Source: a virus
Taxonomy: Duplodnaviria > Heunggongvirae > Uroviricota > Caudoviricetes
Virus record (IMG/VR): IMGVR_UViG_3300002835_000086
Reading direction: 5' to 3' (one strand)
Length of the DNA stretch: 64,000 nucleotides
The position numbers and the translations under genes were made by a program. The notes under the pieces were generated by a model. It made no database searches, was not told the DNA's origin, and saw only the letters and a list, made by a program, of their open reading frames with translations. Below are positions 14,324 to 37,100 of the stretch, one piece after another. The stretch's first letter is position 1. Each line of letters opens with the position of its first letter.

Positions 14324-14611
14324 ATGGCCGACAGGAATTTTTATATGAGAAGAGTATTGACCAAAATTGTAAAAAATATGGTTAGTAAAAATCCTGCATT
14401 CAAAAATATTCGTTCAGTTGAAATACAATTCTTACTTAAATCTCCTGTTAGAAGCGCAATGTGTGATTGGGTTTATGGTCTTACTATCAAGACATATAAC
14501 GATGATGTTAACCAACCTCAAATAATTTCTCAAATAAAAGAAAGAATTGATTCTGTTACATCACAACTAACAAAAGACACTTTCTGTCTCACCGACTATT
14601 ACTTCGAGTAG
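14324..14611 (+). CDS. hypothetical protein
   Basis: 95-aa plus-strand ORF with an upstream promoter motif. Confidence 0.4.
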   Translation: MADRNFYMRRVLTKIVKNMVSKNPAFKNIRSVEIQFLLKSPVRSAMCDWVYGLTIKTYNDDVNQPQIISQIKERIDSVTSQLTKDTFCLTDYYFE

Positions 14612-20560: not shown

Positions 20561-20881
20561 TTACTTGGTAACCAAAGCTTCCACTTTGGATTTCATATGT
20601 TCTGACAATGATACCTCACCAACCGTGGGTGTAATCAATGAAGTCAAAACAATTGAATCAACCAAATATTTGTACGGAATGTGAACCAAGAAGTCGGTAC
20701 CATTGAAGAAATCCAAATCTCCTTTGAGTTCCAAACAACCGTGAACCATTTTCAAAAACAACTTAAACTGAATACCGTCAACAAAGGTTTCATTCAAGAG
20801 GGTCCCGAACTTCTCGTTCTCAATCCTAATATTGTATGTAAAATTGATTTTCATACCACAAATATAGAAATAACTTTTCAT
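20561..20881 (-). CDS. hypothetical protein (start trimmed to MKSYFY)
   Basis: The tracked ORF 20561..20968 runs through the terminator hairpin of the upstream RNA; an internal Met after the hairpin is the more plausible start. Confidence 0.35.
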   Translation of the reverse strand: MKSYFYICGMKINFTYNIRIENEKFGTLLNETFVDGIQFKLFLKMVHGCLELKGDLDFFNGTDFLVHIPYKYLVDSIVLTSLITPTVGEVSLSEHMKSKVEALVTK

Positions 20882-20883
20882 AT

Positions 20884-20918
20884 AAACAAAAAAACCCGAA
20901 GATTTTTTTCTTCGGGTT
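20884..20918 (-). terminator. rho-independent terminator ending the ncRNA
   Basis: Minus strand reads cccgaagaaaaaaatcttcggg followed by ttttttt. Confidence 0.7.
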
Positions 20919-21805
20919 CTGGCACTTAGGTTGAGAATACACCTTCGATTAAGAATCTTTAGGGACATTATTGTTTCTTCCCGTTTCCACTACCTTTTGA
21001 GTAGTAATTCTTAGTGACGGTTCCTTAGGGGTACCATTCCTTGAGTCGTGCGGTTACTCTCTTTGTACTTGTTACTCTCCGAGGTTGCCACCCCAGTGAA
21101 TCCTTGCGGGATTAGAGAACTTTCTCAAGAATCATTTGGGTCTTGGGAACCCATAATGGCAATGAACATCTCATTACTATGTAGTCACCTTTCGCCTACG
21201 ACTGACAGACACTTTTCCTTCGTCTTTTAGTATTTGCATACTTCAAAATGCAAAGTTGTTGGTCTGTGGATGGTGAAAGTAGCGGTCTGCCAACCAGACA
21301 AGCCATCTTTTGAACGACTCGATACTGAACTACTCTCTGAGATATCCCTACCTCGATACTTCAAGAAATCTTCATAATTAAAATCTTGGTAGATTCTAAC
21401 TAAGGTTACCAACAGCACCACCTGTACGATAACATGACTTTCGTCTTTAAGACACCTCTGATATTGAATCCCGTGATTGTAAAGTTGGATGACTTTACTT
21501 CTCACAACAATTCTACGAGTTATTCTTATTGTTCTTCCGAACTCAACTCAACGACCCACATCGCTGAGTCATCATTCCATTTTGTCTACAGTGTCACCCT
21601 CGACTACTCAGGAACAATGATATCCCGCTTGCCTACTCGAGCTCTAAGAACCGAAGTTCAAAGAACCGCAGTCTCCGTTAACCTTCGGAGACCACTTTAT
21701 CCCACTTTCGTGGTTTATTTATTGACCATAGGCGGCCAATTATCTTATTTACTAACCTGTTGGTTAGAAGGATAATCAAATATGTAAAAGAACGTGTTTC
21801 GTTAA
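20884..21805 (-). ncRNA. candidate large structured non-coding RNA of about 0.9 kb (GOLLD/ROOL-class ornate RNA or other large ribozyme-like RNA)
   Basis: About 920 nt with no credible ORF on either strand and GC clearly above flanking DNA. Many short stem-loops carry GNRA or UUCG loops, for example CCAC-GAAA-GTGG, GAAC-TTCG-GTTC and GTCTCCG-AAGGTTAA-CGGAGAC. It begins just downstream of a TTG...TAACTTTG promoter next to the tRNA and ends at a strong terminator. Confidence 0.55.
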
Positions 21806-21844: not shown

Positions 21845-21867
21845 GCACTTTGTAAAAGTTTTTTTTG

Positions 21868-21941
21868 TTGCGGGAGTCGGACTCGAACCGACGGCCTCAA
21901 GGTTATGAGCCTTGCGAGCTACCAACTGCTACCACCCCGCG
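21868..21941 (-). tRNA. tRNA-Met(CAU) with initiator (fMet) features
   Basis: Minus strand: CGCGGGGTGGTAGCAGTTGGTAGCTCGCAAGGCTCATAACCTTGAGGCCGTCGGTTCGAGTCCGACTCCCGCAA. The cloverleaf has anticodon stem CAAGG/CCTTG with loop CTCATAA (anticodon CAT), T-arm GTCGG-TTCGAGT-CCGAC and a 7-bp acceptor stem with a C1/A72 mismatch. It is near-identical at both ends to E. coli initiator tRNA (CGCGGGG...CCCCCGCAACCA). CCA is not encoded. There is one extra nucleotide in the D stem. Confidence 0.85.
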
Positions 21942-22607: not shown

Positions 22608-22956
22608 GAGAGTAAAAATAGGTGAAAATATATTCAATGTGAAGATTAGACACGACAATAAAGGTCGTGCTATGGGTATGATGGGTCGTAAATTTACTGA
22701 CGAGTATAACGGTATGTTATTCTTTATGGATGAAGACTCAAGTTGTTTTTGGATGAAGAACTGCGTCATTCCTCTTGATATCATATTCATTGATAATAGA
22801 GTAATAACTAAGATACACCACGACTGTCCTCCTTGTAAAGAAGATGACTGTCCAAGTTATTGTGGAAAGGGTGGAATGATTTTAGAAATTATGGGTGGTT
22901 CTGCAAAAGAACTCGATATCAAAAAAGGTGATGAGATTAAGATTCTTGTTGACTAG
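22606..22956 (+). CDS. DUF192 (COG1430) family protein
   Basis: GMLFFMDEDSSCFWMKNCVIPLDIIFID ... YCGKGGMILEI ... KGDEIKI matches the conserved DUF192 core. Confidence 0.65.
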   Translation: MRVKIGENIFNVKIRHDNKGRAMGMMGRKFTDEYNGMLFFMDEDSSCFWMKNCVIPLDIIFIDNRVITKIHHDCPPCKEDDCPSYCGKGGMILEIMGGSAKELDIKKGDEIKILVD

Positions 22957-24355
22957 CATCAATCTTCTCTTGTAACTTTCTCAAAAATTCCTCACCAATC
23001 ATTTTAACAAACTTAATGTAAGGAGCGTCCTCTCTTTCAGGGTCGTATCTGTATGAACCTCTTGGTGGTCTTGTACTTCTTCCAAGATAGTTAAGTCCTG
23101 ATATGTTGGTAATACATTTGTGTCCACCTGAGTTAGCTTGAATCAAGTCCCAAGCGTTGATACCAATCTTATCTAACATTTGCATTTCTTCTTCAGATAG
23201 TTGGTCGTATGGTTTTTCCATCATATCCTTAATTTTATCAAGGATTTTTTCACCACCATCCATCATCATCAACTTACCACCATAAATTGCATCGAAGTCT
23301 TTGAATGTAAATCCTACTGATTCAGGTCCAACTGATGATTCACTCACATACTTTATCGTTGATAATGGGATTGTTCTATCTTTAAGTTGTCCCTCCCATT
23401 TGGCCAGAACCTCTTGTGCAATCTCACCGAGATTAACACCTTTGAGTTCTCTATCTTTTTTGAATGGATTACAAGATGCCTGTACTAACCCTAACGGCCA
23501 CATAATAATTAAGAAGTCAGCTTCAGGATTGTTTCTAAAAGGAGTGTATCGGTCATATGACCCAGTACCTTTTAAACTACCCATACCATACTGAACGATG
23601 ATATTACCAATCTTCCTAACATTTGGATGACCTTTCATTGAGTCCATATAGGTCTCAGCGTTTCTTTGAAGGTCCTCAGGTTTTTCTCTTGTATTGGAAC
23701 CCATCCAAGATTTGATGTTGTTTAATATTGAAAGTAAGGATGGTTCCGAATCATTAACCAAGTATTCAAGGAACCCTTTCTTGTTTTTGAACGCCAACAA
23801 TAGTTTGTTTGTAACAAATCCTAACAACATTTTGTTACTAGCCAAATCTTTTTCTTTGTTAAGTCTAAACAAATAATTGATTACATCCTTGGTTGTTAAA
23901 CCATATTTGGCAAAGTCTGCTGAGTCGACAGTTGATATTAATCTAATGTCATCAGCAGGAAATAATTCTTTTGGTGAGATAATTTGTGAAATGGTTTCAA
24001 CGTTTGACCTTGCCTGTCTAAAAGACTTTGAAGCGTCTTTCTCAGCACCGACTTGTTTGTCGTGGTGGTCAGTGTGAATAACAAACATTGGTTTACCGTG
24101 AGCAAAATCAACTAAGACTGGCATTACATCACCAGATGCATCAGGTTTTTTAACTGAGAATTCTTTATCTCCATACTGTATAACCTCACTATCAACAACT
24201 TTAATACCATTATCTTCAAGGTATTTTTTCATTGCAATTGCAGTTGTTACACCATCCAAATCTTGGTGGAAATATATTTTAGCCTTTGGGTATCTTTGTG
24301 CCAAAGCCTTAATGTCTCTTAAACCTGATTCCTTAATTATTTTTTTCATACACAC
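22937..24355 (-). CDS. DHH-DHHA1 family phosphoesterase (NrnA/RecJ-like nanoRNase or pAp/cyclic-dinucleotide phosphodiesterase)
   Basis: HQDLDGVTTAIA (motif I/II) and FVIHTDHHDKQ (DHH motif) at the N-terminus; GGH of DHHA1 (ANSGGHKC) near the C-terminus. Confidence 0.7.
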   Translation of the reverse strand: MCMKKIIKESGLRDIKALAQRYPKAKIYFHQDLDGVTTAIAMKKYLEDNGIKVVDSEVIQYGDKEFSVKKPDASGDVMPVLVDFAHGKPMFVIHTDHHDKQVGAEKDASKSFRQARSNVETISQIISPKELFPADDIRLISTVDSADFAKYGLTTKDVINYLFRLNKEKDLASNKMLLGFVTNKLLLAFKNKKGFLEYLVNDSEPSLLSILNNIKSWMGSNTREKPEDLQRNAETYMDSMKGHPNVRKIGNIIVQYGMGSLKGTGSYDRYTPFRNNPEADFLIIMWPLGLVQASCNPFKKDRELKGVNLGEIAQEVLAKWEGQLKDRTIPLSTIKYVSESSVGPESVGFTFKDFDAIYGGKLMMMDGGEKILDKIKDMMEKPYDQLSEEEMQMLDKIGINAWDLIQANSGGHKCITNISGLNYLGRSTRPPRGSYRYDPEREDAPYIKFVKMIGEEFLRKLQEKIDASQQES

Positions 24356-24358
24356 TAA

Positions 24359-24730
24359 TTACATTGATGGTAACATACTCATAAGAACCACATCGTTAGC
24401 TCTTAACCCATTTTTAGCCTTTAAATTACACAAATGATTGAATTTATACATATGGTTCGCTTGCATCGTCATATCTTCTAATTTACTCAAACTATCACCA
24501 GGTTTGATTTTATACAACATTATGTTTTGCACACCTTCGTTTTTAATATCTTTAACTAAATCTTCTTTAGTGAAACAATATTTTGCACCGGCTTCAGTTG
24601 GTTTAGGACCTTTTTTAAGAATCTCTTCCGCTTTTTTAACGTAAAAAGATTCAGGTTGTGTCTGTTCACTAACAACCTTACGAATTAAGTTAGTTAATTC
24701 TGACTCTGTTAATCTAATAACTTTTTTCAT
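24359..24730 (-). CDS. LysM-like domain protein
   Basis: YKIKPGDSLSKLEDMTMQANHMYKFNHLCNLKAKNGLRANDVV resembles the LysM peptidoglycan-binding motif. Confidence 0.4.
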   Translation of the reverse strand: MKKVIRLTESELTNLIRKVVSEQTQPESFYVKKAEEILKKGPKPTEAGAKYCFTKEDLVKDIKNEGVQNIMLYKIKPGDSLSKLEDMTMQANHMYKFNHLCNLKAKNGLRANDVVLMSMLPSM

Positions 24731-25101
24731 TAGTATTTAAGTGTTAATAGGTATTTTAATTTGTTTATTAATAGTAACATCTCATCTCTCAAGTTGAGTA
24801 AGTCGCTATCAACTTTAGGGTCTAATCTGTCAGTAAGTGAAATTAAAAATTCACACGTACCATCAATAAAGCTTTGTAATGACATTGATTCTAAGTCTTG
24901 AAACATAATTGAGAATGATTCTGTAAATTCAGGTCTACCATATTTACCCATCATACCTTCAACAAAGTCATCAATGAATCCCCCCATTTTATCGTATACT
25001 TTACCGTATGCTCTGTGTTTTGCGTCATACATAGTTTGCCAATGTATAAATCTAAATTGGTTTTGTATTTGTACTAATTTTAATATTACTTCTTCTTTCA
25101 T
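24730..25101 (-). CDS. hypothetical protein
   Basis: 123-aa ORF, ATGA-style overlap with neighbours. Confidence 0.45.
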   Translation of the reverse strand: MKEEVILKLVQIQNQFRFIHWQTMYDAKHRAYGKVYDKMGGFIDDFVEGMMGKYGRPEFTESFSIMFQDLESMSLQSFIDGTCEFLISLTDRLDPKVDSDLLNLRDEMLLLINKLKYLLTLKY

Positions 25102-25102
25102 T

Positions 25103-26158
25103 TTAAGCCGTCATTGGTCCTTTTATTAATGTATTCATAAACATACCCATTATATCCATTTTTTGTGAACCTAAAGACATTTCGTTACCACCATCTTTAA
25201 CTTCATCTGATACTTTTGGGAAATCCTCTTGTAAATATGTTTGTGCTTCAGGAGTTTTTTCATACTTCTCCATCTTGGCTAATAATTCGTCTTCCCCTCC
25301 AACTATTTTTTCAAGTTCATCTGGTCCAACAAAATTTGCAACACCTAAATAATCTAAGAATCCTAAATAGAATTTGGTTTTACCCATCAAAACTCTAATC
25401 TTCATATTACCTTTTCTCCATAGGTCCGAAACTCTTCCAGCACCTAATCCACCACCATAAAAAAATCTTTGTAAAAAATTTGGTTTGTTTAAAATTGTGG
25501 GGTCCAAGAATTTTTCTCTCTTAACTAACGACTCAAGTCCTTGAATTAGTTCTTGTTGTTGTTTAGCAGATTTAGTAGGTAATCTTTTCGCTAAAGAAGC
25601 CGCCTCAGTTCCAACACCTCTAAAAAGTCTTACCCATTCTTTGATGGTGTTTTTAAATCCTCTTGTGATGGCTCCACCAGGTATACGGTCAATGAATTCA
25701 TCAACTTTTGGTGCCCATTCTCTACCTTTTCTTGCGAAAGTACCAAGAGCACCTTCACTTTTAGCAATTTGATTTAGATATTTTTGCGCTTTAACAGTAT
25801 CACCAGCATCAACTGCTTTAGATACCGCTCTCATTAATTGAGGTGTTTTACCCCCAACTTTCATCGCTCCCATAACAGATTTACCTAAAGCATCACCAAT
25901 GTAAGGGACAACAGAAATTAACGATAAAAAGGCATAAAGGTTATCGCCTTGTCTGTAATAAGATATTGCGTTTATTAAATCAGCAATTCCTGTTGGGTCT
26001 ACAATCCCAACCAAACTTAACACATCATTTTTCCAATTGTCCTCGTTAAGAGTTTTAGTATCAGAAGTTTTTTCCAATACCATAACACTCTTAATGATTT
26101 CAAGTTGGGATTCCGTTAATATTACTTGAGGCATAAATTCTTTTACAATAAATACCAA
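25103..26158 (-). CDS. hypothetical protein
   Basis: 351-aa ORF; no motif recognised. Confidence 0.5.
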   Translation of the reverse strand: MVFIVKEFMPQVILTESQLEIIKSVMVLEKTSDTKTLNEDNWKNDVLSLVGIVDPTGIADLINAISYYRQGDNLYAFLSLISVVPYIGDALGKSVMGAMKVGGKTPQLMRAVSKAVDAGDTVKAQKYLNQIAKSEGALGTFARKGREWAPKVDEFIDRIPGGAITRGFKNTIKEWVRLFRGVGTEAASLAKRLPTKSAKQQQELIQGLESLVKREKFLDPTILNKPNFLQRFFYGGGLGAGRVSDLWRKGNMKIRVLMGKTKFYLGFLDYLGVANFVGPDELEKIVGGEDELLAKMEKYEKTPEAQTYLQEDFPKVSDEVKDGGNEMSLGSQKMDIMGMFMNTLIKGPMTA

Positions 26159-26169
26159 GAAGTTAAAAA

Positions 26170-26198
26170 GAAAACCCCCACTTTTTTAGTGAGGGTTC
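26170..26198 (-). terminator. rho-independent terminator (CCCCCAC...GTGAGGG family)
   Basis: aaaacccccacttttttagtgagggtt at the 3' end of the methyltransferase gene. Confidence 0.5.
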
Positions 26199-27055
26199 TG
26201 ATTGTTGAAATCGATGACTTGTTGTCTTCGTTGTTCTACGAATAACCCGACTCTGTCTCGAGCCACTTTAGAATAGTTTGGACTCAGTTCAATACCAATC
26301 CATCTTCTGTCAAGTGTCTCAGCGGCGACCAAACTTGTACCTGAACCTGCGAATGGGTCAAGAACAATGTCATTCTTATACGTAAGAATTTTGATTGCCT
26401 TGGTTGGAATATCCATTGAGAACGTGGCTTTAGTTAGACTTCGTGTGTCAGCAAAGTATTTCCACTGTCCGAAAACCAAATCGATGAACTCACGTTTTTG
26501 TTGTTCCGTATACATCATCTTTGGTCTCATATTACCATCCTTACCTTCTACTTCTCCCATTTCGCCAGTCCATTCAGGTTGACCTTTTACTTTCTTAATG
26601 TGTTTGTTTTTGTATGCCAAAATAACACATTCTTTTGGGTTATAGATGTAAGGGGCTGAAGGGCTCATCCAAGACCCCCAAGCCGTGGTACGACTTCTAT
26701 GTGGTGATTCTTCTTCAAGGTCAACAACTCCGAAGAATTTGTAACCAATCTGTTTCATAATCTGCCACACTTCACTGACCATAAAGATTCTACCTCCTTT
26801 ATCCTGACGGTTGATTTCGTATGGGATGTTAAGAGCAATCCTACCATCATCTTTCAATACACGGTATGCTTGTTCCATCCACGAATATGTAAATTTTACA
26901 TATTCCTCCCAAACCATATCATCTTCGTGAACATCATAATCGATACCAACACCATAAGGTGGTGATGTAACAATCAGGTCCACTGAACCTTCAGGCATCG
27001 AAGCCATCACTTCAATACAATCTCCATTAATTACTCTTCCAATTAAATCTTCCAT
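26186..27055 (-). CDS. beta-class DNA methyltransferase (N6-adenine or N4-cytosine), orphan
   Basis: Motif IV SPPY near the N-terminus (LIVTSPPYGVG) and motif I DPFAGSGTS near the C-terminus, the circular permutation typical of beta-class amino-MTases. There is no adjacent endonuclease. Confidence 0.85.
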   Translation of the reverse strand: MEDLIGRVINGDCIEVMASMPEGSVDLIVTSPPYGVGIDYDVHEDDMVWEEYVKFTYSWMEQAYRVLKDDGRIALNIPYEINRQDKGGRIFMVSEVWQIMKQIGYKFFGVVDLEEESPHRSRTTAWGSWMSPSAPYIYNPKECVILAYKNKHIKKVKGQPEWTGEMGEVEGKDGNMRPKMMYTEQQKREFIDLVFGQWKYFADTRSLTKATFSMDIPTKAIKILTYKNDIVLDPFAGSGTSLVAAETLDRRWIGIELSPNYSKVARDRVGLFVEQRRQQVIDFNNQNPH

Positions 27056-27056
27056 A

Positions 27057-28226
27057 TTATAATCCTAAAATTTCAAGGGTTTTATTCACTCTACTTTGTG
27101 GTGACAAGTTTCTTTCATAATACTCCCTTGCGTTTTTAGAAATATAACTTAAAAATTCGTGGTCATCAACAACCTCTTTGAATCTTTCCTCAATCATTTT
27201 TACGTGGTGAGGTCCTGATAGTCGGTCACTGGCAACTCCATTGTGTCTTGGCATATCATCAGGATATGGAACAGAAATGTAATGTACGTTTGGAATTAAC
27301 TTTTCGTGCATTTCAACTTGGAACTCAAATCTAATCAATGGCATTCCAATCGCCATACATTCAATGTCTCTATAACAAAGTTCTCCCACTCCTGCCATAG
27401 ACAACGACACTTGGTAATCTATCATATCATTGAAGTATGCTTCAGGGGTTGTTGGTGTTTCGGGACAATACAACAACTCATCCGAGAAATGTTTTAAAGC
27501 GGGTCTTTGTGAAACATTACCTCTGAAATACATTAAAGGTACTTTGTTTTGAACGTGTTTTCTTTTGTGATAAAACTGTTCCAAGTCAATCAAACCAGAT
27601 GGGAAATAAATCCAAGGTGAGTATTTGTCATAGTTATTATCAACGTGGTGTTTAATCTTGTAATCAATGAACTGTGAAATCAAAACCTTCTTACATAAAG
27701 GATTGTGTTTCTCATTCATAGTTGCGTAACCCAAGTCATCAGAGACACTCATAATCCAAAACTCACCAGAGTCAGCATCTTCAATAACATATTCACACTC
27801 CAACAATAAGAATTCTTTGGCAAGACCTTTTTTTAATTTAATTTCTTGTCTGTCAAAGTGAGCATTCTCAAAATGCCTGTTCTCAATAACCTCATATCGT
27901 TCTGATAGTTCTTGGGTTAACTCATCCCAAAATAAATTGTAATTACGATAGTATCGAGTTTTGTCATTTGTTGGGTTATGGATTATCAGTCTACGATGAG
28001 GTTTATCACCATTTCCACTTTTATTCTGAACCTCACGGTTGAGATACCATAGAGCTTTATTCAAATCTTGAAGTTCCTTGTCAGTCCCCTTTTTACCTGC
28101 CCTTGAAATATATTTTACAGTATTCCCAAGATTAAATCCTAAGTCCCAAGCTTCAATAACTTTTATTGCTTCATATGGATTATTCTTTCCCCCATAATGT
28201 TGAGGGTGATTTACTTGTTCACTCAT
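27057..28226 (-). CDS. DUF3310-domain protein fused to a GT-B-like glycosyltransferase domain
   Basis: N-terminal 65 aa (VNHPQHYGG...IEAWDLGFNLGNTVKYISRAGKKG...DLNKALWYL) is a textbook DUF3310. The C-terminal part contains GELCYRDIECMAIGMPLI, resembling the GT1/GT4 E-x7-E motif. Confidence 0.5.
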   Translation of the reverse strand: MSEQVNHPQHYGGKNNPYEAIKVIEAWDLGFNLGNTVKYISRAGKKGTDKELQDLNKALWYLNREVQNKSGNGDKPHRRLIIHNPTNDKTRYYRNYNLFWDELTQELSERYEVIENRHFENAHFDRQEIKLKKGLAKEFLLLECEYVIEDADSGEFWIMSVSDDLGYATMNEKHNPLCKKVLISQFIDYKIKHHVDNNYDKYSPWIYFPSGLIDLEQFYHKRKHVQNKVPLMYFRGNVSQRPALKHFSDELLYCPETPTTPEAYFNDMIDYQVSLSMAGVGELCYRDIECMAIGMPLIRFEFQVEMHEKLIPNVHYISVPYPDDMPRHNGVASDRLSGPHHVKMIEERFKEVVDDHEFLSYISKNAREYYERNLSPQSRVNKTLEILGL

Positions 28227-28229
28227 ATA

Positions 28230-29393
28230 TTAATCGTTATAAATTGAACCACTTTTATTTTCAGACTCTTCGAATTGATGTTGTTCCATAATATCTTTAA
28301 GTGGTGATTTTTGAGTATCAACTTTAGTATTCATATTATGAATAATCTTATCAAGAGTTAATGCAAAGTCCAGAGTTTCGGATATGATACCAACAATTTT
28401 ATATGGGTCACCATTTGATGCCGGTCTACGGTCTTCAACATAACCCTTCCATTCTTTTGATGTAGACAATGGAACTCTGATTGATGCACCTCGGTCAGCA
28501 ACCCCCCAACTAAACTTGTCAATAGATTGGGTTTCGTGTTTACCAGTCAAACGAAGATTGTTATCAGAACCGTAATTGTTAATGTGTAACTGATGACGTG
28601 AATCAAAGGCGTTAAAGATGTTTTTGAAGTATTCATCACCACCTTCATTTCTCATCTTGTCATTTGAGAAGTTACAGTGTAATCCTGAACCATTCCAATC
28701 ACCCATCACAGGTTTAGGGTGGAATTCAATCTTAAAACCATAGTCCTCAGACATTTGTTGTAAAATGTATCTCGACATCCACAAATCATCACCGGCCTTT
28801 AATTTACCTTTGGAGAATACCTGGTACTCCCACTGACCCAATAAGACCTCGGCGTTTGTACCTGTAATTTCAATACCTGCCAAGATACAATTTTCCATAT
28901 GAGTATCCACAAATTTTCTACCGTTAACTTGTCCGTTACCTACACCACAATAGTATTTTCCTTGTGGTTCAGGATATCCATTCTCAGGGAAACCCAAAGG
29001 TCTACCATCTTTCATAATGGTATACTCTTGTTCAAAACCAAACCAAAGGTCCTCTTCTTCTTCCCCAACAAGACTTCTTGTATTTGATACGTGTGGAGTC
29101 CCATCGGGATTCATAACCTCACACAACACCAAGAAAGACCATAGACCACCTTCGTTAAGTGAGTTGTGATAAACTCTAACAGGTTTCAAAATACAATCAG
29201 AAAAATGTCCGTCAGCTTGTTGTGTTGATGAACCATCAAAACTCCACTCAGGGCAATCCTTCAGTGTTATAATATCCCCATATGGAATATTCTGAAGACC
29301 AGTCTCTTCTTTTTCAATCACCTTAACCTTACTTCTAAGATTAGGTTCTGGCTGATACCCATCCAACCACACATATTCTAATTTAACTTTCAT
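28230..29393 (-). CDS. glutamine synthetase type II (eukaryote-like GSII) homologue
   Basis: N-terminal KVKLEYVWLDG, GPYYC-like KYYCGVGNGQVNGRKF and NRGASIR-like DRGASIRVP motifs; at 387 aa it is the size of GSII. Confidence 0.8.
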   Translation of the reverse strand: MKVKLEYVWLDGYQPEPNLRSKVKVIEKEETGLQNIPYGDIITLKDCPEWSFDGSSTQQADGHFSDCILKPVRVYHNSLNEGGLWSFLVLCEVMNPDGTPHVSNTRSLVGEEEEDLWFGFEQEYTIMKDGRPLGFPENGYPEPQGKYYCGVGNGQVNGRKFVDTHMENCILAGIEITGTNAEVLLGQWEYQVFSKGKLKAGDDLWMSRYILQQMSEDYGFKIEFHPKPVMGDWNGSGLHCNFSNDKMRNEGGDEYFKNIFNAFDSRHQLHINNYGSDNNLRLTGKHETQSIDKFSWGVADRGASIRVPLSTSKEWKGYVEDRRPASNGDPYKIVGIISETLDFALTLDKIIHNMNTKVDTQKSPLKDIMEQHQFEESENKSGSIYND

Positions 29394-29398
29394 ATTAT

Positions 29399-29590
29399 TT
29401 AATTTTCTTTTTTTACAACGTAGTAACCTTTGGAATAACTAGACTCCTCAATCAATCCTTCATCCATTAGTTTATTTAATTTAACTTCAGTTTCATTTTC
29501 AGTCTCTTTCAAAATGTATTTTGAAATGTAACTGATGTGAATTGGTTGTCTCAACTTAGAAAGTAGTGTCTTGAGCGTCTTGTCTTCCAT
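29399..29590 (-). CDS. hypothetical small protein
   Basis: 63 aa; first of four consecutive small minus-strand ORFs. Confidence 0.3.
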   Translation of the reverse strand: MEDKTLKTLLSKLRQPIHISYISKYILKETENETEVKLNKLMDEGLIEESSYSKGYYVVKKEN

Positions 29591-29592
29591 AA

Positions 29593-29820
29593 TTAATAAT
29601 CTAAAAATTTATCATTGTCTTCCAAAAATTCTAAAAATGGGTGGTCATAATCCATATCAACCCATTTTCCTTTATTTCCATCCCATATCAAATATTCATC
29701 TGAGATATTTGTTCGGGTATATTTAAGTTCAAAAGTTTTACCCTTATCATCCTTGACCTTATATTGAGTTGTATAAGAGAATGATAGTTCTTCTGGTGGA
29801 CCTACAATTGAGTATTTCAT
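29593..29820 (-). CDS. hypothetical small protein
   Basis: 75 aa. Confidence 0.3.
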   Translation of the reverse strand: MKYSIVGPPEELSFSYTTQYKVKDDKGKTFELKYTRTNISDEYLIWDGNKGKWVDMDYDHPFLEFLEDNDKFLDY

Positions 29821-30041
29821 TTCTTTTTCTTTTTGTACTTTTTCTCAACACCCTCCGTTTTTTCTTTTTTCTTAACTTCGGTAATGATTGGAGCAACTCG
29901 TCCATCTTCTTTCCATTCGTTCTTTGGAATGAACTTCCAATAACCCGTTGAAACTCGTTGGTCCGCAACCTTGTCTTCAACGCGCATAATTCGTCCCACC
30001 TCGTACTGAGATGTTTCTTTGATAGCTTTAATGCATTTCAT
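29817..30041 (-). CDS. hypothetical small basic protein (poly-Lys tail)
   Basis: 74 aa ending in KKYKKKKK. Confidence 0.3.
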   Translation of the reverse strand: MKCIKAIKETSQYEVGRIMRVEDKVADQRVSTGYWKFIPKNEWKEDGRVAPIITEVKKKEKTEGVEKKYKKKKK

Positions 30042-30243
30042 TTTTAGTAGTATTAGATTTTAAGTTAAATGTAGTAATGATTTCTTGTTCTGACAAATTC
30101 TTCTCATAAAGTTTATAAACTTTGCTTGAAAACTCATCCATAAAGATGATTGCGTCAGCCTTACCATAGAGACCGTCCAAATTGTATTTGTATAAGTAAT
30201 GTAAGGTTGTTTGTTCTGAAATGTATCGTCTGTGAAAACCCAT
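30028..30243 (-). CDS. hypothetical small protein
   Basis: 71 aa. Confidence 0.3.
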   Translation of the reverse strand: MGFHRRYISEQTTLHYLYKYNLDGLYGKADAIIFMDEFSSKVYKLYEKNLSEQEIITTFNLKSNTTKNEMH

Positions 30244-30252
30244 ATCACAAAA

Positions 30253-31038
30253 TTACGAAACAATTTTTAAATTATCAAAATTTTCTAACTTTTCTTTTGG
30301 GACACTTTGAAGAATATATGAAAGAAGTTTTCTTTTCGCCATTGGGATAAGCGTCTCTTCAAAAGGGAAATGTTGTCTTGATTGAAACTCAAACACAGGT
30401 AATTTACTTTGGTACACGTCTTGTTTCCAATTTGTAGATTCATTAATTATTTGATTAACTGTTCTACCATCAGTAACTCCTGAAAAAATAGACTCAAGAT
30501 GTAATTTAGAGTCTTTTGACTTTTTTATCTTTCTTATTGAGTACTCCCAAATGTATAACTCTTTTTCAGGTTTACGAGTATAAACTAAGTACCCATAACC
30601 TTTGTGTAAGTAGTTCTTATTTTTTTTATGTTGTATATCTGTAGATTCGTAAACAATAGACCATATGGATTTACCAATACTGAAAACATCCATAAGTTTT
30701 GAGTTTGAGTAATATAAAGTTTTCTTTAATTCTAAACTTTGGTCTTCATTTAGATTAGGTAATTTTTTTGGGTATAATTCTTTCAATAGAATTTCATCAT
30801 CACAAGTTTCGAATTTTTTATTCGTAAGTAATAATGTATTTTCTCGATTAATTGATTGGACATTAGCTAAATGAAGTGAAATCTCGACAAAATCAGGGTA
30901 TATCTTATAATCGTCAAAACTACTCTCACATTTTTGTATGTAATCTAATAGCGTATATTTGTTATACTCAAAATCTATTGGTTCCTGAAACATCCATTCA
31001 GGACTCAACTTAAATTGTGTTTTTCTCTTTCTTCCCAT
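30253..31038 (-). CDS. hypothetical protein
   Basis: 261-aa ORF. Confidence 0.5.
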   Translation of the reverse strand: MGRKRKTQFKLSPEWMFQEPIDFEYNKYTLLDYIQKCESSFDDYKIYPDFVEISLHLANVQSINRENTLLLTNKKFETCDDEILLKELYPKKLPNLNEDQSLELKKTLYYSNSKLMDVFSIGKSIWSIVYESTDIQHKKNKNYLHKGYGYLVYTRKPEKELYIWEYSIRKIKKSKDSKLHLESIFSGVTDGRTVNQIINESTNWKQDVYQSKLPVFEFQSRQHFPFEETLIPMAKRKLLSYILQSVPKEKLENFDNLKIVS

Positions 31039-31068
31039 TTACTAAATGATAATTAAAAAGAAAATTTA

Positions 31069-32820
31069 TTAAAGTTTTATAATGTAATAAGTCTCTCCTT
31101 GGACGGTCTCTTCGTGAACCGCCCCATCATTGTGTGACATCATATCATAACTCTCATTATCGATAACAGTATCTATAAATTTTTCCTTATCAATAAAATC
31201 ATCTAATTCTAATCCGTAATCCTCCGCGTATCCAGTTGGGTTGTATCTAACTTCATCCAACTTACTTTCAATCATATTTTCAATATCATCGTCTGAAAAA
31301 TCACCTTCAGGATTTTCTTCTATTTCTTCTTTTTGTTCTTCTAATTCAGTAATATAGTCTTCCAATTGACTAATTCTATCGTCAATTTTATCAACCTTAT
31401 CTTCATCATCAATCCCATATTTAATTTTTTCAAGTCTTTCTATCTCCCTTTGTGTTTGTAAAACTCTAGCGTCAATAATTTTAATAGTTTCAACTTGTTT
31501 TGAATCTAATTGTCTTTGGGAATCGTCTAAATAAGCATCAGGCTCTTGGTAAACGTCCTGATTGAAATAATCATCAAACCAATTAAGTATTTCATCCTCA
31601 TTAACCGCATTATCCTTAACCCAACTAGCAAACCCATCATACCCTTCAGTATCAACCATATCCTCAACATACTCTCTCAACGCATCATCCATCTCCGTCT
31701 CGGTACCCACAGTATATTCATCACCATATAGTTCAGTTGCAAATTTTTGCATTCCATAGTGTTGGGATTCCAAAGGTATTAAATCGTAAACGTCTTTATA
31801 TTCTTTAAACTCATCTAACTCTTCTTCTAATTGTTCAATCTGAGATAATAAATCATACCTTACAGTATCAGAATTTTCATATTCTTCTTGAAGTTCACTT
31901 ATTCTTTCTAAAATATCCGTTCTTCTTTCTTCATCATCTTCACTCATAGATTCGATTTCTCCCTCTGAAACCAAATAATCAAAAAGTGCGTGTGCCATCA
32001 ATCCTATAGTTGGGCAATCAGGACCTAACTCCCACTCTTTATCAATTCTTCGTTCATTTGCTTCTTCCATAGACAATCTTTTTTCTTGAGCAATCCTTTT
32101 TTCTTGTTCTTTTTTATCAATATCAGTCTTTGTTATGTAGTAATCTAAATTACTCATTTTGTCTTCATATTTTCTCTCAAGAAAACTAATAATAAACGAA
32201 TACACAACATTAAAGTTTGGTATAGAATTTAAAACATCCTCCATACCAACTCTCACATTTTTAACATAAAAATAAGGTTTGGAGTTTCTAACAAAAACAA
32301 TTGTTATTTTTTCCTCAGGATTATTTTTATTAATTAAATAGACAATTTTTTTGTCCCCATATTCCCCATATGTTATGTTAAACGAGTTTTCACTACTAAC
32401 GTCGACACATCCTACAGAATCTTTACCATAATAACAAGCGCCTGATTGGGTAGATGGTGAAACAATCAATAATTTATCATCTTCAAATATTATGGACTTG
32501 TTATTGGTAGTGGTCATATTGTTTAGATATTGACCGGTAAAACTATCTATTTGGTTTTTTAAATCTTCATATGAACCAAACTTATTAATGTCAGTTGTTT
32601 GTAAAACACCTTTAAGTCTTTCAAATTTCTGTGTCAAATCAATAATATTAATTAAGTTAATATTATCCCCTTCTTCAGGGAATTTGTTTGCAACCCAATC
32701 CCAATACTCAGGTTGGATGTATTTTACTATTGACGATAAGAGTGGTAAACTCAGTTTGTCCTTATATTTTGTTGTAAAATCAGACTTACTTTGTTCTTTT
32801 AATAACTTACGGATTGACAT
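31069..32820 (-). CDS. large acidic hypothetical protein (coiled-coil and Asp/Glu-rich C-terminal half)
   Basis: 583 aa with a very acidic coiled-coil C-terminal two-thirds; sits upstream of the fibre genes. Confidence 0.55.
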   Translation of the reverse strand: MSIRKLLKEQSKSDFTTKYKDKLSLPLLSSIVKYIQPEYWDWVANKFPEEGDNINLINIIDLTQKFERLKGVLQTTDINKFGSYEDLKNQIDSFTGQYLNNMTTTNNKSIIFEDDKLLIVSPSTQSGACYYGKDSVGCVDVSSENSFNITYGEYGDKKIVYLINKNNPEEKITIVFVRNSKPYFYVKNVRVGMEDVLNSIPNFNVVYSFIISFLERKYEDKMSNLDYYITKTDIDKKEQEKRIAQEKRLSMEEANERRIDKEWELGPDCPTIGLMAHALFDYLVSEGEIESMSEDDEERRTDILERISELQEEYENSDTVRYDLLSQIEQLEEELDEFKEYKDVYDLIPLESQHYGMQKFATELYGDEYTVGTETEMDDALREYVEDMVDTEGYDGFASWVKDNAVNEDEILNWFDDYFNQDVYQEPDAYLDDSQRQLDSKQVETIKIIDARVLQTQREIERLEKIKYGIDDEDKVDKIDDRISQLEDYITELEEQKEEIEENPEGDFSDDDIENMIESKLDEVRYNPTGYAEDYGLELDDFIDKEKFIDTVIDNESYDMMSHNDGAVHEETVQGETYYIIKL

Positions 32821-33059: not shown

Positions 33060-33084
33060 AGTTGTAATATGTTAGTAAAATTAA

Positions 33085-33113
33085 AAGGGTGAAGAAATTC
33101 ACCCTTTTTTTAT
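33085..33113 (+). terminator. rho-independent terminator
   Basis: aagggtgaagaaattcaccctt followed by ttttttt. Confidence 0.6.
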
Positions 33114-33121
33114 ATTTATAA

Positions 33122-34144
33122 GTGATGACAGGGAAATTACAAAGATTAATCGACGATGTTAATAATGGTAAATTTGATATTATCAAAGATTTTTTTGGTG
33201 ATATGGAAACTTTTTTGGACTATCTTGGTAAAAAAGGTTTGATACACGAATTAGACCTTATTAACAACGAAGAAGAATTCGAATATGAAGTTAACAAAAT
33301 AGCCCTCGCAATTAAAGAACATAATCCCGAAAAATTTAGAGAATATGTTTTATCTTCATTAAGTGATGTTACTTATGAAAATGGTGAATACTATGTGACT
33401 TTGAATGATAAAAGTAGACTCGCGTATCTTTTTTGTGATGATAGAAGAAATGGTATGTCTCAATCAACAATATCAGAGATACTAGATGGTGAATGGGATT
33501 TTGATTTTTGGGATACTACCGATAATGTTTATAGGGATGTTATTCAAGAACTAAATAAGGATAATCTTACTTATTTATCAAAAAAAATAAGTAACGAATT
33601 ATCTGACGTTAAGGTAGAACCTGAAACAGAATTGTTAGAAGAAATTGCCGAGGAACAAGGTCATCCTGAATATGTAACCTTAACCCCCGAGTTGATTCAC
33701 GACAGAATATTCAATGATGAGGATTCAACAGAAAGTATTTTGAATGAAACCGAAAACATTAAATCAGATTTACACTCATTACATAACAGAGCATATGCAA
33801 ATGCTTATGAAGATGAGGTGTATAGTGGTATAATGGATGAACTTGAAACATTTTTTGATATGCGCCATTCTGATTGGATAACAGTTCCAAGTAGTGTAAA
33901 CCCAAACAAATCTTATACCTATTTCAAAGTTAAAATAAATAATTTTGATTCAGAGATTTCCGATTACCTTAATAACGCGAAGAATCATAATGAACCATTA
34001 AGTAATTATGGTGACTATCTTAGTATTTTGAGTGAAAATATTAGTTATGGTAGTGCCAATTGTTTGGTATATTACACGCCTGATTATGCGGATTGGCCAA
34101 AAACAAAAGAAAATATTAACGAACTTTTTGGTGACTATTTTTAA
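33122..34144 (+). CDS. hypothetical acidic protein
   Basis: 340-aa plus-strand ORF, convergent with the first collagen-like gene. Confidence 0.5.
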
Positions 34145-37100
34145 ATAATCCCCTTTAGTTTAGCTTTATCCAAAACTTTTTTAGCTCTCTCTTCAAGAGA
34201 TGTTATTCTAACCTCTTGTTCTTTTAACGCTTCAATGTTAACGGCAATCATTTCTTTATAATTCATTGTTAACACTTTACCTTCAGTATAAATAACTTCA
34301 GGAACATAAGGCAAAACTTCTTGAGCAATAAATCCAATAGCTTTTTTGTCATTAGAACTATATTCTTTACCTCTCCATTTAAATGTGACACCTCTAATAC
34401 TTAATATCTTATTTAGAGCATCACCGATAGGTTTAACATCTTTTTTCAGTCTTTCATCTGAAGGACCTGTTGGTCCTTGTGGACCTTGAGCTCCTTGTGC
34501 TCCGAATGTTGAACTAGCACCTCCTTGAGCCCCTGGTGCTCCTTGTGCCCCTGTTGGACCTGGTGTTGCAGAACCTTGAGCACCTGTTGGTCCTTTAAGA
34601 CCTGTAGGTCCTTGTGCACCGACGGCTCCCTCAAAACCTTGTGAACCTTGAGCTCCTTGAGCCCCTGTTGCACCTTGTGCACCTTGTGGTCCATTAGGAG
34701 ACGTTGGCCCTTGAGCCCCTTGAGCTCCTTGAGCTCCAATAGCACCTGAATTTCCTTGAGCGCCTTGAGCACCTTGAGCGCCGGCTGTACCTGAACCTTG
34801 AGCACCTTGAGGTCCTGTTGGTCCTGTTGCACCTTGAGGTCCTGTTGGTCCTGTTGCACCTTGAGCACCTTGAAATCCTTGACCCCCTGTAGGTCCTACG
34901 GCTCCTTGTGAACCTTGAGCCCCTTGAGGTCCTGTTGGTCCTGTTGCACCTTGAGCTCCTTGAGCTCCAACAGGTCCTTGAGCACCTGTGGCTCCTTGGA
35001 ATCCCTGCTGACCATTAGGTCCTATTCCACCTACGTCCCCTTGAGCACCTTGCGCTCCTTGGAATCCTTGTCCTCCTGTTGCTCCTTGAGACCCTTGAGC
35101 ACCTGTTCCTCCTTGAGCTCCCTGAAAACCTTGTCCTCCTTGCGCCCCTTGTGGACCTTGAGCTCCTGTGGCACCTTGAGCACCTTGAGCTCCCTGCCCA
35201 CCTTGCGCTCCTTGTGGACCTATTGCTCCTTGGAAACCTTGTGCTCCTTGAAAACCTTGTCCTCCTTGAGCCCCTTGAGTTCCTGTTGCTCCTTGAGCAC
35301 CTTGAGCCCCTTGTGCTCCCTGTCCTCCTGTTGCGCCTTGAGCTCCTTGTGCTCCTTGTCCTCCTGTTGCTCCTTGGACTCCTTGTCCACCTGTTGCTCC
35401 TTGCGCACCTTGGTTACCAACAGCACCTTGAGCTCCTTGGAAACCTTGAGCCCCCTGACCTCCTTGTGCACCTTGTACTCCAACAGCACCTTGAGCCCCT
35501 TGTGCTCCTTGGAAACCTTGTCCTCCTTGAGCACCTTGAGTACCTGATATACCTACAGAACCTTGAGAACCTTGAGCCCCTTGTCCTCCTTGAGCACCTT
35601 GAGTTCCTGATACACCTTGAGCTCCTTGAGCCCCTTGGAAACCTTGACCTCCTTGAGCACCTTGAGTTCCTGTTGTACCTTGAGCCCCTTGAGCTCCTTG
35701 AAAACCTTGTCCTCCTTGAGCTCCTTGGGTTCCTGTTGCTCCTTGAGCTCCTTGAGCTCCTTGAGCTCCTTGGAAACCTTGAGCACCTTGGGTTCCTGTT
35801 GCACCTTGAGCCCCTTGAGCTCCTTGGAAACCTTGACCTCCTTGAGCCCCTTGGGTTCCTGTCGCTCCTTGTGCACCTTGAGCTCCTTGTGCTCCCTGTC
35901 CACCCTGAGCACCCTGAGTTGCTGTCGCTCCTTGCGCTCCTTGAGCTCCTTGAGCTCCTTGACCACCTTGAGCACCTTGGTTACCAACTGCCCCTTGTGA
36001 ACCTTGAGCCCCTTGTGCTCCTTGTCCACCTTGGGCTCCCTGATTACCTTTAGCCCCTTGAGCTCCTTGCGCCCCTTGGGCTCCTTGACCACCTTGAGCA
36101 CCTTGGTTACCAACTGCCCCTTGTGAACCTTGAGCCCCTTGCGCTCCTTGTCCACCTTGCGCTCCTTGTCCACCTTGAGCACCTTGAGCCCCTTGTGCTC
36201 CTTGAGCACCTTGTCCTCCTTGAGCACCTTGTGTTCCCGTTGCACCTTGAGCACCTTGAGCTCCTTGGAAACCTTGTCCACCTTGAGCACCCTGTGTTCC
36301 TGTTGCTCCTTGAGCCCCTTGTGCTCCTTGGGCTCCTTGTCCACCTTGAGCACCCTGTGTTCCTGTTGCACCTTGAGCACCTTGTGCTCCTTGGGCTCCT
36401 TGTCCACCTTGGGCACCTTGGTTACCCTTTCCACCTTGAGCACCTTGTGCTCCTTGGGCTCCTTGTCCACCTTGAGCACCCTGTGTTCCTGTTGCACCTT
36501 GAGCACCTTGTGCTCCTTGGGCTCCTTGTCCACCTTGGGCACCTTGGTTACCCTTTCCACCTTGAGCACCTTGTGCTCCTTGGGCCCCTTGTCCACCTTG
36601 AGCACCCTGATTACCTGTCGCACCCTGAGCCCCTTGAGCTCCTTGAGCTCCCTGTCCACCTTGTGCACCTTGGTTACCAACCGCTCCTTGTGAACCTTGA
36701 GCTCCTTGAGCTCCTTGTCCTCCTTGGGCGCCTTGGTTACCAACCGCTCCTTGTGAACCTTGAGCTCCTTGAGCACCTTGTCCACCTTGAGCACCTTGAT
36801 TACCTTTTCCACCTTGAGCGCCTTGAGCTCCTTGAGCTCCTTGTCCTCCTTGGGCACCTTGGTTACCAACCGCTCCTTGTGAACCTTGAGCTCCTTGAGC
36901 TCCTTGTCCACCTTGAGCGCCTTGATTACCTTTTCCACCTTGGGCGCCTTGAGCACCTTGAGCACCTTGTCCTCCTTGAGCCCCTTGGTTACCTGTTGCC
37001 CCTTGAGCTCCTTGTGCGCCTTGTGAACCTTGCCCTCCTGTTGCTCCTTGGGAACCTTGAGCTCCTTGGGCTCCTTGACTACCAACCGCTCCTTGAGCAC

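Follow-up and report, generated by a model that had tools for sequence, protein, structure and literature searches.

Gp1.7 of phage T7 is a nucleotide kinase that acts on dTMP and dGMP (PMC10700055, PMC11897194) and, besides this kinase, proteins containing the domain DUF3310 (PF11753) have been reported to determine sensitivity to defence systems or to activate them (AbiV, Avs5), and to be toxic to mycobacteria. Genes for glutamine synthetase (GS) are reported in 247 huge phages of the Huge Phage Genome Collection (bioRxiv 10.1101/2025.02.27.640493) and in nine out of 25 moraphages, whose predicted hosts are Flavobacteriia (PMC12619734), so that such GS genes of phages have been published before. 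Phages also possess glycosyltransferase (GT) clusters able to build multi-sugar glycans on DNA (bioRxiv 10.1101/2023.12.21.572611), and virion glycosylation is known from mycobacteriophages (Freeman et al., 2023, as cited in PMC12619734).

The window, by which we mean the whole 64-kb stretch of viral DNA analysed here, contains three contiguous minus-strand genes coding for a DNA methyltransferase (MTase), a fusion of DUF3310 to a GT-B fold glycosyltransferase, and a GS. It is probably part of a genome larger than 200 kb, and in its features it agrees with the jumbo phages published as moraphages. The phage probably infects a member of the Bacteroidota (Flavobacteriia): no Shine-Dalgarno sequence was found upstream of 14 consecutive starts, and the DUF3310 segment shows 80 % nucleotide identity to Flavobacterium phages. 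A megablast search with 25 kb of the window produced no match among deposited phages. The explanation we favour, with a probability of roughly 0.6, sees here a site of variable accessory genes within a long co-directional array of a large aquatic phage, where DUF3310 and the MTase are ancestral and the GS and the GT-B domain were added separately. The three genes most likely fulfil separate accessory functions, and not steps of a DNA-hypermodification pathway. Gene content, folds, synteny and co-occurrence are observations, whereas the substrates and activities given below are all predictions.

All three ORFs are present exactly where the initial annotation placed them. They abut without overlapping, with gaps of 1 nt between the genes for the MTase and the fusion and of 3 nt between those for the fusion and the GS, so that of the "overlapping or abutting" boundaries originally described only the second term applies. 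Spacing stays between -14 and +30 nt throughout a co-directional array spanning positions 22,937–32,820. The proposal of one operon is plausible, but not its extent of three genes, because the tight co-directional packing continues up to ca. 32,820 and suggests a longer transcription unit. A terminator-like hairpin on the minus strand (26,171–26,199), with a 12-bp stem and a T-rich tail and found solely by a consensus scan, extends across the MTase stop codon and likely marks the end of the unit. A sigma-70 promoter scan was uninformative (61 sites versus 48.5 ± 8.9 expected), Bacteroidota-type promoters being outside the coverage of the tool, and an Rfam scan for a glutamine riboswitch or any further RNA element around the GS gene had no match in the region, its sole matches (GOLLD and a tRNA) being situated elsewhere.

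The MTase gene (26,186–27,055, minus strand; 289 aa) codes for a putative N6-adenine/N4-cytosine DNA methyltransferase, with matches to PF01555 (N6_N4_Mtase; E-value 1.2e-33, 117.4 bits versus a cut-off of 26.7) and to phrog_67. The SPPY motif (residues 31–34) precedes DPFAGSG (residues 233–239), as in beta-class enzymes, and this motif order together with the Pfam match bears out the original assignment to the beta-class SPPY amino-MTases. The nearest solved structures are TTHA0409-like proteins, CcrM, N4-cytosine MTases and M.PvuII. The enzyme would shield phage DNA from restriction through m6A or m4C methylation. It had been called an orphan, and the adjoining ORFs showed no nuclease match in Pfam, PHROG or NCBIfam, although restriction enzymes often evade detection by profiles; a conserved ORF of 351 aa downstream of the MTase gene, considered as a possible restriction enzyme, did not match any family in the same three databases.

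The GS gene (28,230–29,393, minus strand) codes for a protein of 387 aa, with a C-terminal tail of ca. 45 aa past the conserved core. Both Gln-synt_N (PF03951, 39.3 bits, cut-off 33.4) and Gln-synt_C (PF00120, 58.2 bits, cut-off 24) were detected, and the protein aligned over its full length with yeast GS (3fky, E-value 3.9e-101) and also matched Streptomyces GSII (4bax, 4e-96), which confirms that it is of the GSII type. Searches with regular expressions located the ATP signature KPVMGDWNGSGLHCNFS at residue 227 as well as all of the metal and substrate motifs (FDGSS, EQEY, NAEV, WE[FY]Q, HPKP..H, RLTG, HET, SIR and EDRRP), and the N-terminal PROSITE pattern failed by one residue, with F where D/E/N/Q/S/T/A/K is expected. 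Of 127 alignment columns without variation among 18 cellular GSII, the protein conserves 121, and the remaining six fall outside these motifs. It is thus predicted to be a canonical GS that keeps its catalytic motifs. The score against the NCBIfam model for GlnII (NF041605), 388.7 bits over model positions 1–329 of 333, is below the equivalog cut-off of 500 and, as judged from sequence, the enzyme represents a diverged viral branch, homologous to GlnII below the equivalog level. Its designation as eukaryote-type was misleading, since Bacteroidota, Planctomycetota and Verrucomicrobiota commonly have this GSII type, with 52–59 % identity, and among cellular enzymes those closest to it are bacterial GSII, Flavobacteriales included. 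Rarity in phages holds true for the deposited phage records searched, where a GSII-type GS appeared in four uncultured huge phages and in no cultured isolate, but not for large environmental phages, given its presence in related contigs and in published collections (bioRxiv 10.1101/2025.02.27.640493; PMC12619734). The results support the alternative already offered by the initial annotation, an auxiliary metabolic gene, the product of which would convert glutamate, ammonium and ATP to glutamine during infection.

The fusion gene (27,057–28,226, minus strand) is a single ORF whose 389-aa product consists of DUF3310 (residues 5–63; 28,038–28,214), a linker of 10–15 aa and a complete GT-B domain (residues 79–389; 27,060–27,992). 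The first domain covers profile positions 1–60 of 60 of PF11753 (E-value 2.2e-13, 50.5 bits, cut-off 24); it is 68 % identical to a standalone ortholog of 97 aa in the same position of the related contig L010, and 75–91 % identical to thousands of standalone proteins of 71–112 aa. In T7 gp1.7, residues 122–184 correspond to DUF3310 (E-value 4.5e-23), and this is the only segment that aligned with the fusion in a pairwise BLASTP (41 % identity with gp1.7 residues 120–183, E-value 6e-5). DUF3310 had been presented as a domain of unknown function, a description that is not wholly apt given that no other domain can be recognised in the T7 kinase. In the fusion, DUF3310 would keep a role of its own, apparently linked to nucleotide or DNA metabolism. 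Elsewhere, DUF3310 genes usually lie amid DNA-replication or nucleotide genes, a setting that leaves room for a DNA- or nucleotide-directed role of the fusion and, to that extent, counts against the explanation we favour. The AF2 model of the isolated domain is a three-helix unit (mean pLDDT of 76, with 52–64 for four other models), for which no fold could be assigned because Foldseek retrieved nothing from the PDB better than E = 5; searches of PDB sequences with the fusion and with a DUF3310 profile likewise returned nothing usable. Docking of DUF3310 onto the GT domain cannot be judged from the full-length model, since the pLDDT of the DUF3310 part is 37–67.

The recurrence of this gene in independent assemblies, with 75–100 % identity across its clade, substantiates the fusion originally described, and rules out an assembly artefact. 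Standalone GT homologs begin at the residue equivalent to position 78–79 of the fusion, and the fusion is obligate because there is no Met at the junction of both domains. For the same pairs of genomes, the DUF3310 part is more conserved (91–95 %) than the GT part (77–81 %). Its retention across the clade suggests that the fusion is at least tolerated, and perhaps useful. However, it is carried by only one of the 150 best-scoring clusters of the GT-B family, which comprises 419 clusters in all, and this single, lineage-specific event weakens its proposed value as a handle on DUF3310 function. The fusion is the only new item at the locus.

The GT-B domain has the architecture characteristic of this fold, a pair of Rossmann-like domains of which the C-terminal one contains the donor site. 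It belongs to a family without a Pfam model and showed no match in Pfam or NCBIfam, nor to PDB sequences, whereas distant members of the family gave only marginal matches, to WsaF_C and RXYLT1_C (E-value about 4e-3). Its structural neighbours are protein O-glucosyltransferases, GT4-type enzymes and A075L of chlorovirus PBCV-1 (PDB 8asa), and T4 beta-GT was not among the 50 best Foldseek matches. Outside the fusion clade, the domain is a standalone protein of ca. 311 aa. Among 70 standalone loci from IMG/VR, homologs of a PF11397 GlcNAc-transferase and of HtrL_YibB were each present in 62, and homologs of DUF3310, GS, the window-type MTase, T4 gp42 and T4 beta-GT in none. The 135 neighbour proteins were foremost GlcNAc (16), HtrL (13), GT10 (8), FkbM (7) and Methyltransf_24 (5), and others were GLF, TylF, GT_PLOD, epimerase and GDP-mannose dehydratase; sugar O-methyltransferases and fucosyltransferase-like GTs also accompany the family. 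Its members sit with other GTs near tail-fibre or structural genes, and in other phages they are fused to Glf or to sugar O-methyltransferases. The GT-B domain would take a sugar from a nucleotide sugar and attach it to a glycan carried by a protein or envelope acceptor, and its standalone relatives most likely do the same. The window lacks homologs of PF11397 and HtrL, the usual partners of the family, and thus the captured GT may act on something different here. Collagen-like proteins were discarded as the acceptor, being absent from T4-like contigs that carry standalone GT homologs.

Comparison with related contigs showed that the flanking genes are collinear in all the relatives compared (L001, L010–L013, L094–L098 and L108), and conservation of the region thus reflects genome synteny. 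The conserved core is a standalone DUF3310 gene (72–74 aa) followed by the MTase gene, whose position was unchanged in the 16 relatives that were positionally mapped, with a DUF3310 gene upstream of it in every case (16/16). The additional genes varied: L094–L097 have neither GS nor GT, and their DUF3310 gene (74 aa) overlaps that of the MTase by 4 nt; L098 contains, in this order, a GIY-YIG endonuclease, a GS 58 % identical to that of the window, DUF3310 (72 aa) and the MTase, the first of these being a homing endonuclease; L010 and L011 also lack the GT, with the order GS, a small MTase-like gene, the standalone DUF3310 (97 aa), two small ORFs and the MTase; L012 and L013 have GS, fusion, two ORFs of 73 aa and the MTase; and L001 and L108 have the fusion but not GS. 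The GT-B domain is confined at this site to one sub-clade, always in frame with DUF3310, and the GS gene adjoins the fusion in the window, in L012/L013 and in eight out of ten IMG/VR contigs of the fusion clade. Because they are independently present or absent in related phages, the three genes appear to have been added separately. Ancestrally, the site would have contained a pair of genes, a small DUF3310 gene that stood alone and, downstream of it, the gene for the beta-class DNA amino-MTase, to which two unrelated genes would have been separately added: a bacterial-type GSII gene, inserted upstream of DUF3310, and one GT, which would have been taken from a phage cluster for glycan synthesis, placed between DUF3310 and the MTase and fused in frame to the former.

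A functional meaning for the fusion, with DUF3310 binding a nucleotide to aid the GT in handling its donor or product, or oligomerising the GT or targeting it to a DNA- or replication-associated site, seems unlikely. The obligate nature and retention of the fusion, the better conservation of its DUF3310 part and the precedent of gp1.7 (PMC10700055, PMC11897194) would all agree with this possibility; nevertheless, the fusion arose in a single event, DUF3310 is standalone in thousands of proteins, the 120-aa N-terminal part of gp1.7 is missing, and the small helical unit modeled by AF2 neither matches a PDB entry nor shows a fold recognisable as nucleotide-binding, its low confidence in the full-length model precluding any judgement on docking. 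It is improbable, too, that a GT from a protein-glycosylation cluster, fused at the DUF3310/methylase junction, was repurposed for nucleotides, DNA or a host target recognised by DUF3310; if true, this would provide the first biochemical handle on what this widespread domain binds.

Glutamine is the amide donor for amino sugars, and the adjacency of GS and GT could be functional if the glutamine produced fed nucleotide and hexosamine synthesis (through glutamine:fructose-6-P amidotransferase to UDP-GlcNAc), thereby supplying the phage GTs. Glf, a cytidylyltransferase and three GT2 enzymes are likewise encoded in the window, and the GS and fusion genes are repeatedly neighbours in the fusion clade, as described above; but GS occurs without GT (L010, L098) and GT without GS (L001, L108), the window showed no gene resembling GlmS, and a shared insertion hot spot explains the adjacency equally well, leaving this possibility a slim chance.

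The idea that the MTase, the fusion and a GS-like ligase jointly hypermodify phage DNA with glycosylated and/or amidated bases, as an anti-restriction module, agrees with the abutment of three genes that are probably on one transcript, with the relationship of DUF3310 to a nucleotide kinase and to DNA-metabolism genes, and with the existence of GT clusters acting on DNA, but is very unlikely because the genes do not co-vary (relatives carry DUF3310 and MTase by themselves, or accompanied by just the GS or just the GT), because outside its clade the GT-B lies in glycan-building clusters and never beside DUF3310, GS, this MTase or a gp42-like hydroxymethylase (0/70 loci), because its 50 best structural matches do not include T4 beta-GT, because the MTase is an amino-MTase and not the C5-MTase of the known MT-dioxygenase-GT DNA pathways, and because the GS retains every catalytic motif. 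Additionally, Pfam detected no PF00303-like or ThyS-like hydroxymethylase and no dioxygenase in the ca. 44 ORFs of the window that were scanned, neither kind of enzyme was found in the related loci, and tblastn with T4 gp42 matched neither the window nor any of 97 related loci; as the 64 kb of the window probably represent less than a third of the genome's more than 200 kb, such genes could be located outside it. No GS-family enzyme is known to take part in thymidine or cytosine hypermodification pathways.

If the region is indeed an accessory-gene site, it illustrates the gathering of accessory genes at one hot spot by large aquatic phages, in this case those for a DNA methylase, a GS of host type and a captured GT, and cautions that adjacency in collinear phage genomes need not mean a pathway. 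Two by-products may outweigh the original pathway claim: the tight linkage of PF11397, HtrL and GT-B in aquatic phages, which marks a conserved viral glycosylation module without prior characterisation, and the DUF3310::GT-B protein, which lends itself, as a natural construct, to the question of what DUF3310 binds.

Compared with known systems, the MTase resembles other beta-class phage DNA MTases (phrog_67 and CcrM/M.PvuII-type PF01555 enzymes) in motif order, size and phage context, and profile searches recognised no endonuclease adjacent to it. An MTase beside a GT-B fold enzyme is also found in the phage clusters for sugar hypermodification of DNA, which combine a C5-MT with 5mYOX/TET or a ThyS-like hydroxymethylase and a GT (bioRxiv 10.1101/2023.12.21.572611), and it is in this arrangement that the likeness to the T4 alpha- and beta-glucosyltransferases resides. 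The machineries for virion-protein glycans, exemplified by the capsid-glycan xylosyltransferase A075L of PBCV-1 (PDB 8asa), share with the GT-B family the fold and the clusters of multiple GTs and sugar O-methyltransferases, with no relationship at the sequence level, although the GT of the window is parted from its usual PF11397 and HtrL partners. Moraphages and huge phages with GS (PMC12619734; bioRxiv 10.1101/2025.02.27.640493) are large freshwater or marine phages with predicted Bacteroidota hosts, a GSII-type enzyme, and DnaJ and several glycosyltransferases on their genomes, as in the window's, whose related contigs reach 240 kb; the local context of DUF3310, MTase and variable insertion site is not described in those two studies. 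Finally, T7 gp1.7 and the lactococcal phage protein SaV share with the fusion the DUF3310 of ca. 60 aa, and are encoded in early or DNA-metabolism regions of phages; gp1.7 carries the domain at its C-terminus, after a Cys-containing region of ca. 120 aa, whereas the window protein lacks that region and bears DUF3310 at its N-terminus, fused to a GT-B domain.

The MTase (26186–27055, 289 aa), DUF3310::GT-B fusion (27057–28226, 389 aa) and glutamine synthetase (GS; 28230–29393, 387 aa) genes occupy in the ORF list exactly the minus-strand coordinates of the initial annotation, and lie end to end, 1 and 3 nt apart. Equally tight spacing was found across fourteen consecutive genes (22937–32820), so it does not mark off these three as a unit. 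A consensus scan identified a terminator-like hairpin with a 12-bp stem and a T-rich tail (26199–26171, minus strand), overlapping the MTase stop codon, and a bidirectional hairpin (33083–33108); provided that both of these predicted structures function, around nine genes would share one transcript. None of the 14 starts in the array is preceded by a Shine-Dalgarno sequence, which is compatible with a Bacteroidota host. The motif LTE[SN]E[LI]xxLI[RE][KR][VI]V[SM]EQ (0.03 occurrences expected by shuffling) is shared by two otherwise unrelated minus-strand products, at the N-terminus of one (24359–24730) and internally in the other (51930–53669), with looser forms at the start of several other ORFs. 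There is also a sigma-70-like factor (57789–58598, minus strand), judged by eye from its translation.

Comparison of gene order among related contigs yielded an ordered set of variants of the site. In contigs L094–L097, a 584/608-aa gene, a 259-aa gene and small ORFs precede a standalone DUF3310 gene (74 aa) that overlaps by 4 nt a PF01555 MTase gene (283 aa), followed by DUF5856, a 465-aa protein and DUF192, without GS or GT; in the contig collection, 400 blocks have an index entry for the DUF3310 protein of these contigs (P0446). Contigs L010 and L011 contain GS, a small methyltransferase-like gene, a standalone DUF3310 gene (97 aa; 68 % identity to the window domain), two ORFs of ca. 73 aa and the MTase, and no GT. 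The order GS, fusion and MTase, the last two sometimes separated by the two 73-aa ORFs, occurs in L012, L013 and seven IMG/VR contigs, whereas L001 and L108 carry the fusion but lack GS; the window has the fusion and GS without the small ORFs. Within the fusion clade, identity to the window is 91–95 % for DUF3310, 77–81 % for the GT, 89–95 % for the MTase and 81–85 % for GS. This series indicates that the conserved core of the site is DUF3310 plus MTase, and that the site is variable, having gained GS and the GT-B gene separately. Additionally, the 240-kb contig L098 (3264–4999) has a GIY-YIG (SegE-like) homing endonuclease gene and then GS immediately before DUF3310 (72 aa), with only 58 % identity to the window in GS against 84 % in DUF3310. 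A homing endonuclease together with a diverged GS at the same site suggests mobile, repeated acquisition, and GS may have entered the site more than once. The best explanation for the cluster, to which we assign a probability of roughly 0.6, is an insertion hot spot that holds three accessory functions independent of one another.

Over its full length the GS aligns with the yeast enzyme (E 3.9e-101) and with GSII of Streptomyces (E 4e-96), and it scores 388.7 bits over the whole NCBIfam GlnII model, below its strict cut-off of 500. It retains the ATP signature, every metal and substrate motif and 121 of the 127 columns invariant among 18 cellular GSII sequences, and its sequence can be read as that of a working glutamine synthetase. 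The nearest cellular relatives (52–59 % identity) are bacterial GSII from Saprospiraceae, Flavobacteriales (including Flavobacterium, Tenacibaculum and Aquimarina), Planctomycetota and Verrucomicrobiota, so that the designation eukaryote-type, used initially, is a misnomer here. The alternative put forward at that time, that GS is an auxiliary metabolic gene, is supported.

The MTase matches PF01555 (E 1.2e-33) and phrog_67, and its motif order, SPPY at residue 31 and then DPFAGSG at residue 233, is that of the beta class. Among its closest solved structures are N6-adenine (CcrM, RsrI, MboIIA) and N4-cytosine (PvuII, rotifer N4CMT) enzymes, and SPPY presumably leans to N4-cytosine. Pfam, PHROG and NCBIfam profiles recognised no nuclease gene among the neighbouring ORFs; phages often carry orphan PF01555 methylases. 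A second orphan DNA methyltransferase, of the Dam-like D12 class, is encoded at 47131–48015 (minus strand; PF02086, E 6.9e-21).

The GT-B half of the fusion belongs to a widespread family without a Pfam model (419 clusters at 50 % identity, 203 with E ≤ 1e-10), nearly all of whose members are standalone proteins of 300–330 aa. Gene clusters with a standalone copy lie mostly in T4-like contigs, near tail-fibre and other structural genes. An IMG/VR scan yielded 150 viral loci; within 8 kb of standalone GT-B genes, homologs of the PF11397 "GlcNAc" transferase and of HtrL_YibB were each present in 62 of 70 loci, with PF11397 immediately upstream and HtrL_YibB downstream (L112–L181 and L005–L008; 62/70 viral loci). 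Enzymes initiating protein O-glycosylation are among the members of PF11397. None of these 70 loci contained homologs of DUF3310, GS, the window-type MTase, T4 gp42 dCMP hydroxymethylase or T4 beta-glucosyltransferase. A Pfam census of neighbours (135 proteins, 19 loci) was led by GlcNAc (16), HtrL_YibB (13), GT10 fucosyltransferase-like (8), FkbM (7) and Methyltransf_24 (5), and included GLF, TylF, the PLOD GT domain, epimerase and GDP-mannose dehydratase, with no thymidylate-synthase or dioxygenase family among the 25 families listed. FkbM/TylF-type O-methyltransferases and GT10-like enzymes are usual in these loci, and further fusion partners of the GT-B domain are UDP-galactopyranose mutase, FkbM, Methyltransf_24, CmcI-type rhamnosyl O-methyltransferase and NTP_transf_5. 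These neighbours and partners indicate that the family is part of a module of several enzymes that builds glycans containing methylated sugars, and the GT-B/PF11397/HtrL_YibB set has the appearance of a so far uncharacterised glycosylation module of phages. Since some phage GT clusters also decorate DNA (bioRxiv 10.1101/2023.12.21.572611), we infer only as the most economical reading that the acceptor would be protein or envelope.

The window itself lacks PF11397 and HtrL homologs. Elsewhere on its minus strand (14599–18101, 6434–7832 and 2647–3078) there is a second set of glycan genes, encoding UDP-galactopyranose mutase (Glf, E 1.9e-75; fused to the GT-B family in other phages), three GT2 enzymes, one of them with TPR repeats, an LpxH-like metallophosphatase and a cytidylyltransferase. 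Three tandem minus-strand ORFs (34141–37425, 37418–40840 and 40844–44422; 1094–1192 aa) code for collagen-like proteins, mainly G-x-y triplets after an N-terminal domain of ca. 100 aa, with a GC content of 47–57 % versus about 32 % elsewhere in the window; relatives (L001) have genes of the same kind. These products are possible fibres and glycosylation targets.

Residues 5–63 of the fusion are a full-length DUF3310. The two parts are joined cleanly end to end: GT homologs that stand alone begin with a methionine at the equivalent of residue 78–79, and in their alignment with the window protein this methionine is absent from the latter. Among the best 150 of the 419 GT-B clusters, only that of the window carries DUF3310. 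The novelty is modest: a DUF3310::GT-B architecture confined to one lineage, and the triad formed by its GT-B family with PF11397 and HtrL. In the cultured Flavobacterium phage immuto (L099, 3950–8119) a standalone DUF3310 gene overlaps one for a PD-(D/E)XK nuclease, and two annotated glycosyltransferases follow 1.2 kb downstream; the DUF3310 gene of a Chryseobacterium phage immediately precedes DnaE, and that of a cyanophage adjoins the sliding clamp. DUF3310 proteins have been linked to nucleotide kinase activity (T7 gp1.7), to AbiV (SaV, a sensitivity determinant), to activation of the defence protein Avs5 and to mycobacterial toxicity (PMC10700055, PMC8306868, PMC11897194). That DUF3310 steers a repurposed GT to nucleotides, DNA or a host target is an unlikely alternative.

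Known pathways of phage DNA glycosylation depend on a hydroxymethyl-pyrimidine source that usually clusters with the GT; this is a ThyS-like hydroxymethylase in some and a C5-MTase paired with a TET-like dioxygenase in others (bioRxiv 10.1101/2023.12.21.572611). The initial proposal that the adjacent methylase, GT and GS form one DNA-hypermodification pathway is not supported and appears very improbable, because the three genes occur in differing combinations in related contigs, the MTase beside the fusion is an amino-MTase, GS has no sign of an altered active site, Pfam detected no C5-MTase/TET-like or ThyS-like enzyme among ca. 44 scanned ORFs of the window, which covers 64 kb of a genome probably larger than 200 kb, and T4 gp42 had no tblastn matches in the window and 97 related loci.

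A full-length GOLLD RNA (20928–21337, minus strand; Rfam RF02032, 307.5 bits against a gathering score of 150, model positions 1–416 of 416) is separated by about 530 nt from the single tRNA gene of the window, a tRNA-Met (21867–21941, minus strand), and the listed ORF overlapping this RNA (20561–20968) is probably not a gene. An RNA ligase and a small AAA_33 kinase are also encoded on the minus strand (4711–5724 and 8852–9253).

The nucleotide kinase gp1.7 of T7 contains DUF3310 at residues 122–184 (E 4.5e-23) as its sole Pfam match, with 41 % identity to the window domain. Some standalone DUF3310 proteins of our homolog alignment (P0416, P0435, P0471, P0478 and P0484) have an N-terminal Cys-rich extension, such as MKKECVCGGTGPCQC, and gp1.7 likewise has a Cys-containing stretch before DUF3310. 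GS genes of large aquatic phages have been described before, 248 of them from 247 huge phages (bioRxiv 10.1101/2025.02.27.640493). The moraphages, with predicted hosts in Flavobacteriia, have GS in 9 of 25 members, DnaJ/DnaK and several core glycosyltransferases (PMC12619734). The GS of the window and its full-length DnaJ (48661–49596, minus strand; J, CXXCXGXG and C-terminal domains) fit this description, and with its glycosyltransferases the window has these traits in common with the moraphages.
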